From a bacterium (GTDB lineage: Bacteria; Patescibacteriota; CPR2; UBA1875; CAIMLA01), in assembly GCA_037129835.1 (NCBI GenBank), contig JBAXUE010000001.1:174858-238857 (forward strand): DNA of 64,000 bases. The letters run 5' to 3'. Below, in pieces: positions 3,738 to 55,199 of the stretch; position 1 is the first letter of the stretch, and each line of letters opens with the position of its first letter. Under the pieces are notes generated by a model, which was given only the letters and a program-made list of their open reading frames with translations, did not search any database and was not told where the DNA came from. The translations under genes were made by a program, and so were the position numbers.

Positions 3738-4999
3738 AAATTGCAGTAGCTATGTCGGGTGGGGTCGATTCTTCTGTCGCTGCGGCATTGATGGTCGATA
3801 AATATGGTACACAAAATGTTTTCGGCGTGACTATGAAACTATTTTGTTATGGTGAAAGCGGCGGTAGCGATAAAAGTTGTTGTTCGTTAGACGCGATAGA
3901 CGATGCAGCTATGGTTTGCAAACAGCTTGGGATAAGTCACTATGTTGTAAATCTAGAAAAAGATTTTGAGGCAGAAATAATAGATAATTTTATTTCAGAA
4001 TATAGTCAAGGAAGGACCCCAAATCCCTGTGTGAGATGTAATAGTCTCATTAAATTCAAGCATTTATTACGAAAGGCACAGGAGCTGGGTGCTGATATTC
4101 TAGTTACGGGTCATTATGCTCGGATTCTCCCTTCTTTGTCATCCCTGGTAGTTAACCCAGGGATCTCTAGCGGCCCCTCTGACTTGTCTAGCGAAGCCTT
4201 GGTCATCGACTCTGAGGTGAGCCTCATCGCTCAGACTCGAAGGGCGAAGATGGAAGAAGATCCTCATTTTCGTAAGGATGACAACGTTTTGGGACTTTTC
4301 TGCGGTCTTGATTCCGCCAAGGATCAATCATATTTCCTTTACAATCTTGATCAATATCAGCTGGGCCACATTTGGTTCCCACTAGGGGAGCTCACAAAGC
4401 CGGAAACACGTAAATTGGCTGAGAAATATGCTCTTAAAACGGCTCAAAAGACAGAATCGCAGGACATTTGTTTTGTAACAACTACCACACAGGATTTTTT
4501 ATCCAATAAGATAAAGATAAAAGCGGGAAACATAGTAGATAAAGCCGGGAATGTACTCGGTAAACACGACGGGATACCTTTTTATACCATAGGACAGCGA
4601 AAAGGTCTCGGAGGAGGGTTTACAGAGCCAATGTATGTTACAGGGTTCGACCTTGTAAGAAATGATCTCGTCGTGGGAAGAGAAGAAGAACTATATGATG
4701 ATGAGATGATGGTGAGTGATATACATTGGACTTATGGAGCACCCGATTTACCCACTGAGATGGAAGTAAAGATTCGGTATAATTCTAAAGCGAGTTCCGC
4801 TTCACTAAATACTTCGAGCGAAGTTGAGAAGTCACGGTCTGATAGTTCTCGATCTGGCAACTGCCGGACTTCGAACAATAAAGTATTAATTAGATTCCAA
4901 AAACCTCAAAAGGCCATTACCCCTGGGCAAACTGCTGTTTTTTATATAAAAGAAGAGGTCGTTGGCGGAGGCATTATTGAGTCTACTAGAAAATATTGA
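3734..4999 (+). CDS. mnmA: tRNA-specific 2-thiouridylase MnmA carrying an in-frame ~50-aa insertion
   Basis: N-terminal PP-loop motif MKIAVAMSGGVDSSVAAALM, plus a CxxC motif, GHYAR, DQSYFLY and a C-terminal TPGQTAVFY. The protein is about 60 aa longer than typical MnmA because of two extra segments. Confidence 0.9.
   Translation: MKIAVAMSGGVDSSVAAALMVDKYGTQNVFGVTMKLFCYGESGGSDKSCCSLDAIDDAAMVCKQLGISHYVVNLEKDFEAEIIDNFISEYSQGRTPNPCVRCNSLIKFKHLLRKAQELGADILVTGHYARILPSLSSLVVNPGISSGPSDLSSEALVIDSEVSLIAQTRRAKMEEDPHFRKDDNVLGLFCGLDSAKDQSYFLYNLDQYQLGHIWFPLGELTKPETRKLAEKYALKTAQKTESQDICFVTTTTQDFLSNKIKIKAGNIVDKAGNVLGKHDGIPFYTIGQRKGLGGGFTEPMYVTGFDLVRNDLVVGREEELYDDEMMVSDIHWTYGAPDLPTEMEVKIRYNSKASSASLNTSSEVEKSRSDSSRSGNCRTSNNKVLIRFQKPQKAITPGQTAVFYIKEEVVGGGIIESTRKY
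4134..4285 (+). mobile_element. About 150-bp palindromic insertion element with 9-bp terminal inverted repeats (TTGTCATCC ... GGATGACAA), inserted in-frame in mnmA
   Basis: Terminal inverted repeats at 4135-4144 and 4277-4285. Inner hairpin ATCCCTGG-N7-CCCAGGGAT at 4141-4164, plus a second imperfect hairpin TCGACTCTGAG-N13-CTCAGACTCGA. It encodes LSSLVVNPGISSGPS...EEDPHFRKDDN, which is absent from MnmA homologues at the GHYAR/LDSxKDQSYFLY junction. A second copy lies at 16242-16318. Confidence 0.6.
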
Positions 5000-5035
5000 C
5001 TGTAATGATATAATAAAAGCACAGAAATGCAGTCT

Positions 5036-5066
5036 ATCAGGTTCTCTTACAGAGAGCCTGTTTTGA
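5036..5066 (+). terminator. Hairpin CAGGTTCTCT-tac-AGAGAGCCTG followed by TTTTG; putative mnmA terminator
   Basis: Inverted repeat with a T-run, 37 nt after the mnmA stop. Confidence 0.45.
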
Positions 5067-5108
5067 TAGATACGGTTCGTACCATTTATTCAGTAGGAGG
5101 TGAGTACA

Positions 5109-5372
5109 GTGAAGACTGTCCGCGAAAGAGCGCTTCCAGAAGAAGTGGTGGTAGAGGCTCTTAGTCTTACTACCGCTGAGTCAGCGAAGGTAAGTACGCT
5201 AGTGCGCTGGTTGCAGTGCAACAAAAAATGGCGTCGTGACCGAGACAACAAATTTTCTGAGAAGCAACTAGGGGACGCTCTACGTGCTACCGAAACGGAC
5301 TTTCCTGATTATGAGCGCCGAATGGTACTTATGAACAAGCTGCTGGTACTAGATCAGGAGCGAGGGGGATGA
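5109..5372 (+). CDS. Hypothetical protein in a GC-rich island (GTG start after AGGAGGTGAG)
   Basis: ORF of about 88 aa. RBS AGGAGG at 5094-5099. GC content is clearly above the flanks. No recognisable motif. Confidence 0.4.
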   Translation: MKTVRERALPEEVVVEALSLTTAESAKVSTLVRWLQCNKKWRRDRDNKFSEKQLGDALRATETDFPDYERRMVLMNKLLVLDQERGG

Positions 5373-5392
5373 TCTTCTTGTACGAAAAACTG

Positions 5393-5456
5393 AATCGGCG
5401 GACAAAAGTAGCCGCCTGAGGGTCGCAGTGCGCAAGTGCTAGCGACCCTCGTCCTT
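5393..5456 (+). terminator. Two consecutive GC hairpins (GGCGG-N9-CCGCC, then GAGGGTCGC-N15-GCGACCCTC) followed by TTTTATT
   Basis: Inverted repeats are directly visible, with a T-run after the second hairpin. Confidence 0.5.
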
Positions 5457-43360: not shown

Positions 43361-43570
43361 ATGATAAGGAGGAAAATGACTAAAATAATTGTAGATGATG
43401 ATATGTGTATTGGTTGCGGTTCTTGTATTTCGGCCTGTCCGGAATGTTTTGAACTAAGCGAAGACGGAAAATCACTTTCAAAAGGTGTTTCTTGTGATAG
43501 TTGCGATCTAGACGAAGTCGCCTTGGATTGTCCAGTTCAAGCAATAACGATAAAAAAAGATGAGTCTTAG
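43361..43570 (+). CDS. Small 4Fe-4S ferredoxin
   Basis: CIGCGSCISACP cluster-binding motif. 69 aa. Confidence 0.7.
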   Translation: MIRRKMTKIIVDDDMCIGCGSCISACPECFELSEDGKSLSKGVSCDSCDLDEVALDCPVQAITIKKDES

Positions 43571-44198: not shown

Positions 44199-44268
44199 AT
44201 TTATATATAAGTATATAAGCCATTAGACTTCTTTTATTAACCAAACAGAGATATAATAGTTTTTCGAT

Positions 44269-46335
44269 ATGGAAAAAAATAAGTTTATTTTACATTCAAA
44301 ATATAGTCCTGAGGGAGACCAGCCGACAGCAATTAAAAAATTAGCCGCCGGTATTGATAATGGTCTTAAGCATCAAACATTACTAGGAGTAACAGGTTCT
44401 GGGAAAACTTTTACAATGGCCAAGCTTATCGAACATGTCCAAAAACCAACTTTAATTATTTCCCATAATAAGACTCTTGCCGCTCAACTTTATTCAGAAT
44501 TTAAAGAATTTTTTCCTGATAATGCAGTTCACTATTTTGTATCATATTATGATTACTATCAACCCGAGGCATATATTCCAAGAACAGACACATATATCGA
44601 AAAAGATGCCGATATCAATGAAGAGATAGACCGATTGCGCAACGCTGCTACCAGCGCGCTATTGTCACGTTCGGACACCTTGATTATCGCTTCTGTTTCT
44701 TGTATCTACGGCCTGGGTAATCCTGAAGAGTATCAAAATCTTTCAGTGGCTATAAAAGTAGGGGAAGAAAGAAGTAGAGATAGGGTTTTGAGATTACTTT
44801 CGGATGTCCAATATGAAAGAAATGACAAGAGCCTAGAAAGGGGCAATTTCAGAGTTCGTGGGAGTATCCTTGATATTTTTCCTTCGTATGAAGAATTCGC
44901 ATATAGAATTGAATTTGATGGAAATATTGTAGAAAATATAAAGCTAATTAACCCTCTTACTGGCGAGATTTTGAATAAATTTCAAGAAATTACAATATAT
45001 CCAGCAAAGCATTTTGTTACTACCAAAGAAAGAATAGCCGAAGCATCAATAAAAATACAAAAAGAACTTGAAGAACGGGTTAAATTTTTCGAATCGGAGA
45101 ATAAGTTACTCGAAGCCCAAAGAATATCACAAAGAACAAATTATGACTTAGAAATGCTGTCAGAGCTTGGCTATTGCTCGGGGATAGAAAATTATTCGAG
45201 ATTACTTTCTAATCGTGAGGTGGGCAGTGAGCCGGCAACGTTAATTGACTATTTCCCTGATGACCTACTTATCTTAATAGACGAGTCACACATGACAGTT
45301 CCGCAGATTAGGGGTATGTACAATGGCGATCAGGCTCGCAAGCAAAACTTGGTGGACTTTGGTTTTCGTCTTCCGAGCGCTCTCGATAACAGACCTATGA
45401 AATTCAATGAATTTGAATCTCATATCAAACAAGCTATTTATGTGTCGGCAACACCGGCTGAATATGAACTTAGAAATAGCACAGGTGGTAAAGTCTCTAC
45501 TAGTGCGGAATTTTATGAAAATAGACGAAAAGGGATCGAATACGAAGCGATTGCGGAGCAGGTTATTCGACCTACGGGGTTAATTGATCCTACTATAGAA
45601 GTACGACCAATCGAGGGACAAATAGATGATCTAATTAAAGAAATCAGAAATAATACGGCCAAAAATCACCGAACTATCATTACAACACTTACAAAAAGAA
45701 TGTCTGAAGAATTGTCTCAATATTTATCAGAACTTGGTATTAAGGTGAAATATATTCATTCGGATATTCACACGCTTGAACGCCCAGAAATATTGCGGGA
45801 TTTACGGCTTGGTGTTTATGATGTTATTGTCGGTATTAATCTCCTACGGGAGGGGATAGATTTGCCAGAAGTATCTTTGGTTGCTATTTTAGATGCTGAT
45901 AAAGAGGGTTTTCTGCGTGGGGAGCAAGCCTTGATACAAACCATAGGACGAGCAGCAAGGCACCAAGAAGGTCGGGTAATAATGTATGCAGATAGGATGA
46001 CTGGATCGATGGAACGGGCAATAGCGGAGACAGATAGAAGGCGTAAGATACAAATCGAATATAATGATAAAAACGGTATTACCCCACAATCAATCAAAAA
46101 GGCTATATCGAATTTGGTTCACTCAAAAGAAATAGAAAAAGAAGCCCCAGAATTTGATATAACTAAAGTTCCGGCCGAAGATTTAGGGCGTTTGGTTAAG
46201 GATTTGGAGAGAAAAATGGATCTAGCGGCTAAAAATCTCGAGTTTGAAAGAGCGGCAGACCTAAGAGACCAAATATCATCTATTGAGCAAATAAAAGAGA
46301 AGAATAAGATTAGTAAGCACTTAAAGAGTTTATAA
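44269..46335 (+). CDS. uvrB: Excinuclease ABC subunit B
   Basis: Helicase motif [10 protein letters not shown] and a C-terminal UVR domain ([10 protein letters not shown]). Confidence 0.93.
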
Positions 46336-46342
46336 ATGGGCT

Positions 46343-46370
46343 GAGGCCAGAATGCAAGCATTCTGGCCTC
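46343..46370. terminator. Hairpin GAGGCCAGAATGC-aa-GCATTCTGGCCTC after uvrB
   Basis: Perfect 13-bp inverted repeat. Confidence 0.5.
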
Positions 46371-46379
46371 ATAAATCTC

Positions 46380-46760
46380 GCCATTGATGGGGGTACTAGT
46401 TCGCGGAAACTCTTGGAAATGCAGCATTTGCAGCAGTGATGAGGTGGTTTGCAAGAGCGCGATTGCTGCTAGAGTACTTTCTGGCAGTTTCCTGCGGCGT
46501 TGTGCCTACGAACTTGTCGCATGAGGAGCCCTTGGGTAAGTGGTTATTGCGACAGTTTGTTTGAAGTCTGTTAGCCAGAGCGTACTCCGCCGTACCTTCT
46601 TCGCAGTTGCAAAGAAAGATAGAACACAATCCAGCTTTTGTACAGATCATCCGGGCACCCCCTTTCGTGGGGTTGCTTTGAGGGATAGAACTTGACACAA
46701 AAAAAGAGAGCTATAAACACCAGCCTTGTTGGCTAGGGTTACTCTCTTTGTGTATTCGTA
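46380..46760. other. GC-rich non-coding island (candidate structured ncRNA; identity unresolved) ending in a minus-strand terminator-like hairpin AGAGAG-N-CTCTCT + T7
   Basis: No plus-strand ORF. Only weak minus-strand ORFs. GC is clearly above the genome average. Conserved RNase P (GGAAAGUCCGG, ACAGAANCCGGCUUA) and tmRNA landmarks were sought by eye and not convincingly found. Confidence 0.3.
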
Positions 46761-46829
46761 TCACATGTCTATTATAATACAGCAAGTCAAAAATAGGAAT
46801 AATTAGGCCTCTTGGGGCGCGTAAAAGCC

Positions 46830-46858
46830 TTGAAATATCTTGACATCCGCTGTAGAAT
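46830..46858 (+). promoter_or_regulatory. Sigma70-like promoter TTGAAA-17-TAGAAT for uvrA
   Basis: Hexamers with 17-nt spacing, 39 nt upstream of the uvrA ATG. RBS GAGGTGAGG. Confidence 0.45.
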
Positions 46859-46896
46859 GGAGGAGTTCTATCGCTAATTTTTGAGGTGAGGTCAAG

Positions 46897-49716
46897 ATGT
46901 ATGAAAATATTGTGATTCGTGGTGCCAGAGAGCACAATCTAAAAAACATTGATGTTACTATCCCAAGGGATAAGTTGGTTGTCATAACTGGTCTTTCTGG
47001 TTCAGGCAAGTCATCGCTCGCTTTTGACACTATTTATGCAGAAGGCCAAAGAAGATATGTAGAAAGTCTATCTAGTTATGCTAGGCAATTCTTGGGTCTA
47101 ATGGAGAAGCCAGACGTAGATCAAATAGAGGGTCTATCACCGGCGATTTCAATCGACCAGAAATCAACTACTAGAAACCCACGTTCTACTGTGGGTACAG
47201 TCACTGAGATATATGATTATCTTAGATTACTATTTGCTCGTATTGGCATACCTCATTGCCCAGTATGTGGTCGCGTGATCACAAAGCAAACTATAGTTCA
47301 GATTGTTGAGCAAATTTTAAGTAAACCCAAAGATAGTAAGTTTATGATATTAGCTCCTATTATCAAGGACAAAAAAGGAGTACACAAGTACGTTTTTGAT
47401 GGTCTAAAAAAAGCTGGATACGCTCGAGTGAGAGTAGATGGCAAGCTTTATGATATTGAAGAAGAGCATGGACTTGATAAAAACAAAAAACACACAATCG
47501 ATGCAGTAATTGACAGACTTATGGTAGACCCAGAAATCACAAAAAGACTGACTGAGTCGGTGGAAAATGCTCTTAATCTTGGCGAGGGTGTGATGATCTT
47601 CCTCGATAGTGATACTCAAGAAGAACAAGTTTTTTCACAAAATTTTGCTTGTCCAAATTGCCATATTAGTTTACCCGAGATCACTCCTAGAAGTTTTTCG
47701 TTTAATAGCCCTCATGGTGCATGCCCAGTGTGTACTGGCCTAGGGACTAAGTTGGAAATAGATCCCTCTCTGGTAATGCCAAATCAGAAATTAACAATAG
47801 CAGAGGGTGCCATTAGGCCTTGGAGTAGGACGACCGCGAGGATGAGTTGGTACAGTAAAATCCTTGAAGAAGTAGGCAAAAAATATGATTTTTCGGTAAA
47901 TGACTCAGTGGATAGCCTTAGCGATAAGGTAATTGACATTATTATGTACGGGACTGGACAAGAGAGTTTTACTGTACATTTAGGTACTAGAGTCTATGAG
48001 GCAACCTACGAAGGTGTTATCGCCAATCTCGAACGGCGTTATCATGAGACTGACTCAGATTATGTCCGTAAGGAAATTGAAAAATATATGGCGCTTCGAG
48101 TTTGTCCTAAATGTAAGGGAAAAAGGCTAAAACCTGAATTTTTAGCAGTAACCATAGATGGAAAAAATATTTATGACGTTACAAATATGTCTATTGATAT
48201 AACTGCTGATTTATTTAATGAAATCAAACTAAGCGATCGCGATCTAGAAATAGCAAAGCAAATATTAAAAGAAGTGAGAGAGCGACTCGGCTTTTTAATT
48301 AATGTTGGATTGAATTATCTTACTCTTGACCGTTCGGCGAATACTTTATCCGGTGGAGAGGCGCAAAGAATCCGTCTAGCGACGCAAATCGGTTCTTCTT
48401 TAATGGGCGTTATTTATATATTAGATGAGCCATCTATCGGCTTGCACCAAAGAGATAATTTTAGGTTAATCGAAACATTAAAGAGATTAAAATCTCTTGG
48501 TAATTCTGTGATCGTCGTAGAGCATGATGAAGACACGATGAATGAAGCAGATTGGATTATCGATGTTGGTCCAGGTGCTGGTGAGCACGGCGGCGAAATA
48601 ATAGCCGAAGGAACGCCAGAACAGATAAAGAAGAACAAGAATTCTCTTACCGGACAGTATTTGTCTGGCCATAAAACAATCGAAGCGCCAGAGAAAAGAA
48701 GAAAGGGTAACGGGAAAGATATTACTATAGTAGGTGCCGCCGAAAATAATCTTAAAAATGTAACAGTTTCGGTTCCATTGGGAATGTTGGTACTTGTTAC
48801 GGGAGTATCTGGATCGGGTAAATCAAGCTTAATAAATGATATTTTGGCAAAAAAATTATCTCAGGTTTTTCATCACGCTCAGGAGCCAGCCGGCAAACAT
48901 CTTGAAATCTTAGGACTAAAAAATCTTGATAAAGTTATTGATATAGATCAATCTCCGATCGGCCGAACTCCTAGATCAAATCCAGCGACGTATACCGGAG
49001 TATTCACAGATATACGCGATCTTTTCGCCGGTACGCCTGAGGCAAGAATAAGAGGATATAAACAAGGACGTTTTAGTTTTAATGTTAAAGGCGGTCGTTG
49101 CGAATCATGTCGAGGCGAAGGTATTTTAAAAATAGAGATGCACTTTTTGCCCGATGTCTATGTGACATGTGAAGAATGTGCCGGGAAAAGATACAATAAA
49201 GAAGCATTGGAAATCCATTATAAGGGAAAAAATATTTCTGACGTTCTTGATATGACTGTAGCTGAAGCATACGAATTTTTCCAAAACATCCCTCAAATTA
49301 AGCGCAAACTCGAAACACTTGTAGAGGTTGGCCTAGGATATATTCGCTTGGGACAGCCAGCGACTACACTTTCGGGGGGAGAGGCACAACGCGTCAAACT
49401 GGCTTCTGAACTCGCAAAAAGAGCAACTGGTAAAACTTTATATATCTTGGATGAGCCCACCACGGGTCTTCATTTCGATGATGTAAATAGACTCATGACA
49501 GTGCTAAATAAGCTAGTAGATACTGGAAATACAGTTTTGGTTATTGAGCATAATTTAGAAGTAATTAAGTGCGCAGATTGGATTATCGACCTTGGACCAG
49601 AGGGTGGCAATGCTGGTGGAGAAATCGTGGCAACAGGAACGCCTGAAAGCGTTGCTAAAAATCCTCGATCCTTCACTGGCCAATATCTTGCCAAGGTTAT
49701 TAATAATAGAACCTAG
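46897..49716 (+). CDS. uvrA: Excinuclease ABC subunit A
   Basis: Two ABC modules ([20 protein letters not shown]) and zinc-finger Cys pairs (CPNC...[12 protein letters not shown]...CEEC). Confidence 0.93.
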
Positions 49717-54490: not shown

Positions 54491-54556
54491 TTTTATTGAC
54501 CCAAGTAGGATAATCGAGTATAATATTACAGCATTTCAAGTGCAGACTTGGCTTCT

Positions 54557-54643
54557 GCGGACGTGGCGGAATTGGTATACGCGCTAGCATGAGGGGCTAG
54601 TGATCGCAAGGTCTTGGAGGTTCAAGTCCTCTCGTCCGCACCA
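54557..54643 (+). tRNA. tRNA-Leu (anticodon GAG), long variable arm, CCA encoded
   Basis: Manual cloverleaf: acceptor GCGGACG/CGTCCGC, anticodon loop ATGAGGG, T arm GAGGTTCAAGTCCTC. Confidence 0.8.
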
Positions 54644-54644
54644 A

Positions 54645-54721
54645 GGGCGCCTAGCTCAGTTGGTTAGAGCATCTCGTTTACACCGAGAGGGTCAGAGGTT
54701 CGAATCCTCTGGCGCCCACCA
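54645..54721 (+). tRNA. tRNA-Val (anticodon TAC)
   Basis: Acceptor GGGCGCC/GGCGCCC, D arm GCTCAGTTGGTTAGAGC, anticodon loop TTTACAC, T loop TTCGAAT. Confidence 0.85.
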
Positions 54722-54829
54722 TTCGACTCGCTAACTCGCTCATGGCTTACAGCCATAGAGTTTGAGGGGAGAATGTCCTGAGTGAGGTTGTAAAACCGAA
54801 TCGAATGGACAAAAGTAAATATTATTTGT

Positions 54830-54905
<76 letters not shown>

Positions 54906-54951
54906 CTTAAATAAGAGAATAATTTTCATCGTTGGTTTGAAAGTTTTACGA

Positions 54952-55026
54952 GCGAGAGTAGCTTAGCGGTAGAGCGCAACCTTGCCAAGGTTGAGGTCGC
55001 GGGTTCGATCCCCGTCTCTCGCTCCA
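54952..55026 (+). tRNA. tRNA-Gly (anticodon GCC)
   Basis: Acceptor GCGAGAG/CTCTCGC, anticodon loop TTGCCAA, T loop TTCGATC, discriminator U. Confidence 0.85.
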
Positions 55027-55040
55027 TTAATATTATTTAG

Positions 55041-55114
55041 GGCCTGATGGCGGAGTGGTTACGCAGCGGTCTGCAAAACCGCGTACCCCGGTTCAATTCC
55101 GGGTCAGGCCTCCA
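55041..55114 (+). tRNA. tRNA-Cys (anticodon GCA)
   Basis: Acceptor GGCCTGA/TCAGGCC, anticodon stem-loop GCGGT-CTGCAAA-ACCGC, T arm CCCGGTTCAATTCCGGG. Confidence 0.8.
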
Positions 55115-55199
55115 GCCCGGGTGGCGGAATTGGTATACGCGACGGACTTAAAATCCGTTGGCTTCGGTCTTGCGGGTTCAAGTCCCGCCTCGGGCACCA
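55115..55199 (+). tRNA. tRNA-Leu (anticodon TAA), long variable arm
   Basis: Acceptor GCCCGGG/CTCGGGC, anticodon loop CTTAAAA, T arm CGGGTTCAAGTCCCG. Abuts tRNA-Cys. Confidence 0.8.

Follow-up and report, generated by a model that had tools for sequence, protein, structure and literature searches.

Does a long GC-rich gap in an AT-rich, reduced bacterial genome hold a structured RNA, or something else? We addressed this question for the interval between uvrB and uvrA in a member of the Patescibacteria (GenBank assembly GCA_037129835.1), using a stretch of 64,000 nucleotides of contig JBAXUE010000001.1 (positions 174,858 to 238,857) that is called the window below and whose own numbering is used throughout. 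The first-pass annotation of the window had described the interval as a non-coding gap of 560 bp with a hairpin at either end, and had read it mainly as a structured RNA (a divergent RNase P RNA, a 6S-like RNA or a novel noncoding RNA, ncRNA), with a small Cys-rich protein gene preceded by a 5′ attenuator as the fallback. By comparing related loci, we found that the gap carries a conserved minus-strand gene for a protein of 84 amino acids (aa), that such genes are present, absent or replaced by unrelated ones at the same site in close relatives, and that most of them share one promoter and hairpin leader. These observations make it very probable that the gap is a replaceable small-gene cassette, similar to a minimal mobile element, and that a hairpin acting as an attenuator or as a stabiliser gates its expression.

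A conserved small protein gene in the uvrB–uvrA gap

The gap is real: 561 bp separate the end of uvrB at 46335 from the start of uvrA at 46897. With genes taken as open reading frames (ORFs) of at least 150 aa, it nearly tied with a gap of 564 bp at a tRNA cluster, and the earlier statement that it is the longest ORF-free stretch in the window holds only among gaps that are explained neither by RNA genes nor by ORFs of 110–150 aa. Its composition had been described correctly, with a GC content of 0.47–0.52 over 46300–46700 versus 0.389 window-wide. Two observations concern long gaps elsewhere in the window. A cluster of six tRNAs (54557–55196) accounts for the sole other intergenic stretch of similar length (54491–55054), and the next-longest unexplained gap is a segment of 436 bp without any ORF of at least 110 aa (5000–5435).

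Relatives were taken from a protein search as graded UvrB homologues with 70–87% identity, which, together with the window, gave 15 uvrB–uvrA loci (the window, L083–L086, L088, L089–L095, L098 and L099). The best GTDB matches of UvrB were to Saccharibacteria, at no more than 63% identity; going by these matches, the host is a Saccharibacteria-like member of the Patescibacteria. The 80 GTDB loci found in this way (≤63% identity) were too distant and had nothing in common with the gap.

The 84-aa frame on the minus strand, which had been called weak, is in GenBank as a hypothetical protein (WCP14_01205 / MEI6266492.1). Comparison with homologous loci established that it is a real gene under selection at the protein level, and the gap can no longer be described as non-coding. 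L085 has a minus-strand ORF of 80 aa at the same site that is 46% identical to it (BLASTP E = 5e-21), and L089 has a syntenic homologue with 48% identity; E values among these syntenic ORFs, referred to below as family A, were 5e-21, 6e-20 and 5e-15. Conservation was higher for amino acids than for nucleotides. When the gaps of the window and of L085 (558 bp) were compared by blastn, only the uvrA promoter and one patch of 50 nt were aligned, and on the minus strand this patch gives an identical peptide in the two genomes from DNA that differs synonymously. In a comparison of all frames, the ORF frame scored 56–71 bits and the other frames at most 35 bits. Within family A, the proportion of nonsynonymous differences (pN) was 0.34–0.41 and that of synonymous differences (pS) 0.75–0.88, with synonymous sites saturated. 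The ORF also has a start codon and, 5 nt upstream of it, a Shine–Dalgarno (SD) sequence, GGGGGTG, in agreement with the ribosome-binding site that had been thought plausible for this frame.

Family-A proteins share five conserved Cys residues (C3, C9, C16, C33 and C44) and the motif CExGTAEYAxAN. Most likely, the protein is small, cytoplasmic and metal- or redox-binding; this is a guess based only on its five Cys and on the absence of signal peptide and membrane segments. The features of a type I toxin–antitoxin system were not found: with 84 aa, the protein is longer than 60 aa and has no hydrophobic segment, no antisense promoter was identified, and there was no PADLOC match.

Presence, absence and replacement of cassettes among relatives

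In all 15 loci the site is flanked by uvrB and uvrA, and its content varies among close relatives between presence, absence and replacement of a cassette, as comparison of these loci established. Four of them (L083, L084, L086 and L088) have only a spacer of ~87 bp with the conserved uvrA promoter. The other 11 (the window, L085, L089–L095, L098 and L099) have an insert of 0.45–0.65 kb with one minus-strand ORF. This variation occurs over a short range of divergence; for example, UvrB identity to the window is 87% in L083, 86% in L084, 84% in L085, 81% in L086 and 71% in L098.

The ORFs of the slot fall into at least five mutually unrelated families (BLASTP E ≤1e-11 within families, nothing below 0.3 between them). 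Family A (window, L085 and L089) consists of cysteine-rich proteins of 80–84 aa. Family B (L090, L091 and L099) has a CGDCH...C-x3-C pattern followed by a hydrophobic tail, and is the only family with a hydrophobic C-terminus. Family C (L093, L094 and L095, plus P0125 and P0126; ~91–128 aa) has four members only, all from this clade. Families D (107 aa) and E (130 aa) are represented by L092 and L098, respectively. Searches of Pfam, PADLOC and PHROGs gave no match for any of these families, nor did NCBIfam for family A. An AlphaFold model of family C, built from an alignment of four sequences, had a predicted local distance difference test score (pLDDT) of 67.5, and a Foldseek search with it against PDB gave nothing at E < 0.4.

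The distribution of families is incongruent with the host phylogeny: in a neighbour-joining tree of UvrB, family A, family B and the empty state each occurred in both subclades. In all 11 inserts the ORF is intact and has a start codon, an SD sequence and a terminator, and the ratio of nonsynonymous to synonymous substitution rates (dN/dS) between L094 and L095 was 0.22. No terminal inverted or direct repeats, target duplications, transposase remnants or recombinase genes were found with the inserts. The GC content at third codon positions (GC3) of cassette ORFs was 0.51–0.74, compared with 0.30–0.53 in the neighbouring uvrB (in the window, 0.51 compared with 0.30 in both uvrB and uvrA). This explains the GC richness noticed before, and it points to a different origin or history of the cassette DNA.

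Further analysis of the annotation of these loci showed plus-strand ORFs called wrongly over the cassettes, in L085 (5242–5448, 68 aa) and L091 (4714–4929, 71 aa). Because gene callers missed the ORFs or placed them on the wrong strand, a collection of 15 billion proteins does not contain the proteins of families A and B from L085, L089, L090 and L091.

The first-pass annotation had taken the hairpin next to uvrB as one boundary of an RNA gene. The hairpin itself is real, a perfect inverted repeat that folds into 13 bp, and it lies between the convergent uvrB and small ORF, at the 3′ end of the latter, as an element of terminator type. Each insert-bearing relative has a perfect hairpin of its own at this place, with a sequence that differs by cassette and is similar only within close pairs (L094 and L095), and the insert-less genomes have no hairpin on the uvrB side. 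It was flagged as terminator-like in L085 (on both strands) and in L095. We read it as the predicted terminator of the cassette, which would also end transcription of uvrB.

Other features of the neighbourhood were also compared. The gene order rpsP-KH-trmD-fdx-(212 aa)-uvrB-uvrA is conserved, and the ferredoxin-type 4Fe-4S ORF (Pfam) two genes 5′ of uvrB, of 69 aa in the window (43361–43570), is kept in all relatives, with lengths of 64 aa as called in L001 and 61–66 aa in the relatives. A second variable spot was observed between the 212-aa gene and uvrB. Several relatives have a plus-strand ORF of 83–95 aa there, without a Pfam match (L083, 2683–2946; L084, 2679–2942; L085, 2664–2936; L091, 2194–2445; L092, 1844–2131), and the spot is empty in the window (44199–44268), L086, L093 and L094.

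The shared predicted promoter and leader hairpin

Nine of the 11 inserts have the same order of elements on the ORF strand: TATAAT, (G/A)TG, a bipartite hairpin, a U-tract, a short variable stretch, a GGAGG-type SD sequence and ATG. One promoter and hairpin leader, as defined by alignment of these inserts, precedes ORFs from families A, B and C, which are unrelated to one another and make up three of the at least five in the slot. The leader of L098 (family E) is different, and the insert of L092 (family D) is cut within the leader. A covariance model of the full module, R1, found a single copy in the 64-kb window and one each in L085, L089, L090, L091, L093, L094, L095 and L099 (56–85 bits), with no further copies when the window and 26 loci were searched. 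The promoter pattern also matched L087, by chance. In L098, the minus-strand 130-aa ORF between uvrB and uvrA (4565–5166) has an upstream region unlike model R1. As L098 is the most distant relative, this would mean that either the slot is older than the leader or the leader was replaced.

The hairpin described earlier as AGAGAG...CTCTCT with seven T residues on the minus strand was found as stated, with arms AAAGAGAG...CTCTCTTT followed by T7. The outer stem is conserved, and the inner stem differs in sequence from genome to genome and always pairs. The nine leaders, folded alone, had free energies of −24 to −36 kcal/mol and z scores of −4.0 to −8.4 (−4.3 in the window). RNAalifold on the homologous loci, which had been proposed as a check, supported the hairpin, with compensatory changes in 7 of 15 pairs. 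In a model-based alignment 90% of cells were paired, compared with 37–49% with slid partners, and none of 500 shuffles reached the covariation score. Wobble cells comprised 13 G.U and 3 A.C, an excess which indicates that the structure is selected on the minus-strand transcript. Besides, pairing extends from the A-rich 5′ flank to the U-tract and the following bases, and it is better between cognate flanks than between non-cognate ones (permutation p = 0.01). The pattern of substitutions thereby establishes the hairpin as a real RNA structure, kept by compensatory changes on the minus-strand RNA. In this respect the fallback reading fared best: the ORF is real, and the hairpin with T7 lies in its 5′ leader and covaries in eight other genomes.

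Several features of the leader resemble a transcription terminator placed inside a 5′ leader. A U-tract of 3–7 residues directly follows the stem in all nine leaders, and the hairpin and U-tract lie between the predicted promoter and the ORF, with the −10 box ~25–30 nt 5′ of the hairpin and the SD sequence 35–60 nt past the U-tract. A terminator scan flagged only the inner stem in the window. The −10 box is TATAAT in eight leaders and TACAAT in one, and sigma-70-like promoters using it were called in L085 (10/12), L095 (10/12) and L090 (11/12). The predicted 5′ end is paired within 1 nt in eight of the nine minimum free energy (MFE) folds. The SD region of the window gene is itself placed in a small hairpin, and pairing of SD with anti-SD is predicted in most relatives, for example CACCU/AGGUG in L090 and L095 and UCACC/GGUGA in L099, so that the SD sequence would be masked according to these predicted folds. 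Finally, all nine leaders have (G/A)TG at +6 from the −10 box, opening a frame of 11–17 codons that stops inside the hairpin; a leaderless upstream ORF is only suggestive on this evidence. The idea that leader similarity follows the cassette family was rejected, as identity was 63.7% within families and 61.5% between them, with a weak correlation with the uvrA 5′ end.

The right boundary of the slot is the uvrA promoter, whose 30-nt pattern is kept in all loci of the clade, with or without an insert. Within it, the direct repeat CTTGAAA-N3-CTTGACA, in tandem and with its copies spaced by one helical turn, overlaps the −35 element and is followed by N6-GTAGAAT; this repeat might be a site for a response-regulator-type factor. 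The motif GAGTTTCTGGCGCTAAAT (in the window, the variant GAGTTCTATCGCTAAT) follows the uvrA −10 box at 46862–46879 and occurs in 15 of 15 loci, and it may serve as an operator or as part of the 5′ untranslated region (5′UTR). We also observed a 12-nt inverted repeat, AGGGATAGAACT / AGTTCTATCGCT, at 46681–46692 and 46864–46875, which puts AGUUCUAUC in both the leader of the small gene and the uvrA 5′UTR and is weaker in L090. A shared operator linking the two was rejected, as the repeat is not systematic across the nine loci.

Table 1. Elements of the uvrB–uvrA slot in the window, with the evidence for each
Feature	Position	Strand	Evidence or details
uvrB (688 aa), conserved left flank of the slot	44269..46335	+	ORF list; Pfam UvrB domains; homologues at 70–87% identity
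Perfect GC-rich hairpin between convergent uvrB and small ORF	46342..46371		14-nt arms, 100% complementary; folds into 13 bp with a 4-nt loop
Small protein gene, family A (84 aa)	46396..46650	-	ATG at 46650, stop codon 46396-46398; translation, homologues, frame scores
SD region, GGGGGTG inside small hairpin CCCC-ACGAAA-GGGG	46656..46672	-	5 nt 5′ of ATG; MFE fold of the leader
Full leader module (covariance model R1)	46675..46776	-	cmsearch 79 bits, E 9e-13; next best 19.8 bits
Leader hairpin and U-tract	46699..46749	-	Outer stem GAGAG/CUCUC, inner stem CUAGCC/GGCUGG in the window; U7 at 46699-46705
Possible leaderless upstream ORF	46711..46764	-	GTG exactly 6 nt past the −10 box; 17 codons; stop within the hairpin
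−10 box of the small gene, TATAAT	46771..46776	-	Distance to the hairpin fixed in the nine leaders
uvrA promoter, TTGAAA-17-TAGAAT, right slot boundary	46829..46858	+	Promoter scan 10/12; in all clade loci with or without insert
uvrA (939 aa), conserved right flank of the slot	46897..49716	+	ORF list; Pfam UvrA domains

Interpretation, alternatives and known systems

If the gap is a replaceable cassette with a gated leader, its minus strand would be read in the following order: the promoter, a ~70-nt 5′-terminal hairpin with its U-tract, a stretch that pairs with the SD sequence, the ORF, and the terminating hairpin (coordinates in Table 1), with the last of these ending the converging transcripts of the small gene and of uvrB. 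The U-tract would stop most transcripts ~70 nt from their start, i.e., by attenuation. Those mRNAs that read through would have a paired, blunt 5′ end protecting them from 5′-dependent RNases, and an SD sequence masked by a second small hairpin. Translation of the leaderless upstream ORF of 11–17 codons into the hairpin may promote read-through. Whole cassettes would be exchanged or lost by homologous recombination, through uvrB on one side and through the leader and uvrA promoter on the other. Such exchange is plausible because Saccharibacteria are naturally competent; they are genetically tractable via natural transformation (PMC10633639).

Several points weigh against this interpretation. 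The −35 element of the small gene is weak in the window and the promoter scan called no promoter there. No alternative antiterminator fold was found. The signal of the upstream ORF is weak, with a chance expectation of ~0.47 per sequence among sequences that are related. Leader similarity follows neither host nor cassette cleanly. What is said of the promoter, transcription start, U-tract termination and translation is predicted from sequence, and recombination is inferred from an incongruent distribution in 15 genomes only. The family-A protein gives little additional help. It had no homologue outside the slot in 5.8 billion clusters (which returned only itself), in 1.84 billion representatives searched with phmmer, in Pfam, NCBIfam, PADLOC and PHROGs, in PDB by profile search, or in phages and plasmids by tblastn. 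P0122, the sole extra phmmer match, was a tandem-repeat artefact. The ORF also had no relative in GTDB genomes, JGI metagenome contigs or IMG/VR viral contigs. AlphaFold2 from the single sequence gave an unusable model (pLDDT 45.8), and it is for lack of both an outside homologue and a usable model that the function given above is a guess.

Other explanations of the locus were weighed on the same data. In the one favoured by the first-pass annotation, the body of the gap (46380–46700) is a structured ncRNA (divergent RNase P RNA, 6S-like RNA or a new class) and the ORF is incidental. The GC content above the genome average fits such an RNA, and so does the folding of the entire gap, which is better than that of shuffles (z = −3.1 for the plus and −5.0 for the minus strand). 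However, the excess folding was gone once both terminal hairpins were removed, and the GC-rich body (46385–46660) folds like shuffles (z = −0.67 and −1.78, respectively). The Infernal searches that had been suggested found no RNA family in the gap on either strand: Rfam at the gathering score gave only tRNAs in the whole window, all outside the gap, and at E ≤10 with permissive filters both strands of 46200–47000 gave only four chance-level matches (miRNA, lncRNA and rli43 models, 12–16 bits). RNaseP_bact_a and RNaseP_bact_b had no gathering-score match in the window and none at E ≤10 in 46200–47000, leaving the RNase P-like motifs seen by eye unsupported; the same searches gave no match to the 6S RNA, tmRNA and SRP RNA models, and ARAGORN found neither tRNA nor tmRNA in 46200–47000. 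Homologous loci keep amino acids, in the protein frame only, and not nucleotides, and other relatives, including the closest, hold unrelated sequence here or none at all. Such variation is incompatible with an essential RNA such as RNase P RNA, and we regard a structured ncRNA in the body as essentially excluded. It is also extremely improbable that the insert is a decaying remnant, i.e., a pseudogene or mobile-element scar with no present function. Although its absence from the closest relatives, its atypical base composition and the orphan status of its proteins would suit a remnant, decay would hardly leave ORFs with their start, SD and terminator intact in every insert, purifying selection within families (pN < pS; the dN/dS of 0.22 for L094 and L095) and a leader maintained by compensatory substitutions, and neither terminal repeats nor transposase remnants were seen.

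Two further possibilities assign the function to the leader element itself. It might be a free-standing, trans-acting small RNA of ~70 nt, with leaky read-through accounting for expression of the ORFs as passengers. Promoter, hairpin and U-tract are indeed the only parts common to cassettes with unrelated ORFs, the hairpin with U4–7 resembles an entire intrinsic terminator situated ~70 nt from the predicted start, and no promoter is evident by inspection between the U-tract and the ORFs. We nevertheless consider this unlikely, since the element never occurs without a downstream ORF and was lost together with it in the four insert-less genomes; the 64 kb contain a single copy, and no other was found in the loci examined. 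Its single-stranded parts (5′ flank and loop) are unconserved and offer no obvious targeting seed, and the ORFs are under purifying selection with an SD sequence 35–60 nt after the U-tract, which implies that read-through must matter. Alternatively, the hairpin might act at the DNA level as a recombination site in an integron-like dock (promoter and attI-like hairpin, ORF, attC-like hairpin). The formal layout fits, with a conserved promoter and hairpin, a variable ORF, and a distal hairpin that is conserved in structure, variable in sequence and travels with the cassette; the outer stem is conserved and the inner one variable, as in attC sites, and the ORF families are incongruent with the host phylogeny. 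This is very unlikely all the same. No integrase adjoins the slot, whose neighbours are uvrA and uvrB, and no recombinase was found within the 7–8-kb loci examined. Inspection of the junctions showed no GTTRRRY / RYYYAAC core sites, and no locus has a second cassette. At 12–14 bp the distal hairpins are perfect, GC-rich palindromes, short and typical of terminators, and not imperfect attC folds of 60–140 nt with extrahelical bases, and the 13:3 ratio of G.U over A.C together with the U-tract fits an RNA element.

The replaceable cassette with a gated leader can be compared with several known systems. The minimal mobile elements of Neisseria (Saunders & Snyder 2002; Snyder et al. 2007; definition quoted in PMC3082526) are similar in that two conserved flanking genes have different whole-gene cassettes, or none, between them in different strains, without transposase, integrase or terminal repeats and in a naturally competent host group. 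Unlike them, the cassettes of this slot are single orphan ORFs of 60–130 aa, and nine of the 11 inserts share a promoter and a structured leader, so that just the ORF and terminator would be swapped. Recombination in the slot is suggested by phylogenetic incongruence, and the comparison of leaders yielded no breakpoints. With terminator-based attenuators (trp and his leader peptides, antibiotic-responsive ribosome-mediated attenuators, and riboswitch or antiterminator platforms) the slot shares a hairpin and U-tract between predicted promoter and ribosome-binding site, and all nine leaders have a candidate short upstream ORF ending inside the hairpin. In contrast to known attenuators, no antiterminator fold, aptamer, ribonucleic antiterminator (RAT), ANTAR, T-box or Rfam match was found in the slot leader, and the upstream peptides are unconserved, have no regulatory codon runs, and would be leaderless and mostly GUG-initiated.

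The leaders of ompA, ermC and aprE have short 5′-terminal stabiliser stem-loops without a U-tract, which block 5′-end-dependent RNases. The slot leader is similar in that pairing is predicted within 1 nt of the 5′ end in eight of nine cases, and differs in that its hairpin spans ~70 nt and is also terminator-like. As in an integron (Pc, attI, ORF, attC), a fixed promoter and site are combined with an interchangeable promoter-less ORF and a structured distal hairpin of variable sequence; unlike an integron, the slot has no integrase in the loci examined, no core sites and no arrays, and its distal hairpin is terminator-like. In the literature, we found no description of a single-gene uvrB/uvrA replacement slot in this Patescibacteria clade, of its at least five orphan families, or of the covarying terminator-like leader. 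What is already known is the gene itself, as a hypothetical protein in GenBank.

A more far-reaching version of the cassette reading would be a "plug-and-play" dock, in which a fixed promoter and a ~70-nt terminator or stabiliser hairpin, possibly opened by translation of a leaderless micro-ORF, drives interchangeable, lineage-restricted genes for orphan small proteins of foreign base composition. The slot would then be an integrase-free, single-slot analogue of an integron that samples new small proteins. We offer this tentatively, as a rather unlikely idea. As such a dock is transcribed divergently from uvrA, its proteins might serve stress responses or interaction with the bacterial host.

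With regard to annotation, these observations suggest that what looks like a GC-rich gap in a reduced, AT-rich genome may turn out to be a missed or mis-stranded small gene and not an RNA. With regard to biology, Patescibacteria have minimal genomes, yet this clade keeps a hypervariable slot with at least five families of orphan small proteins. A leader of ~100 nt and an ORF of 60–130 codons make a compact system for asking how ultrasmall episymbionts acquire accessory small proteins, express them and exchange them, and the leader could serve as a portable expression element in these organisms. The importance of the slot would be greater if its leader proved to be a translation-coupled switch or a dedicated dock for new small genes.

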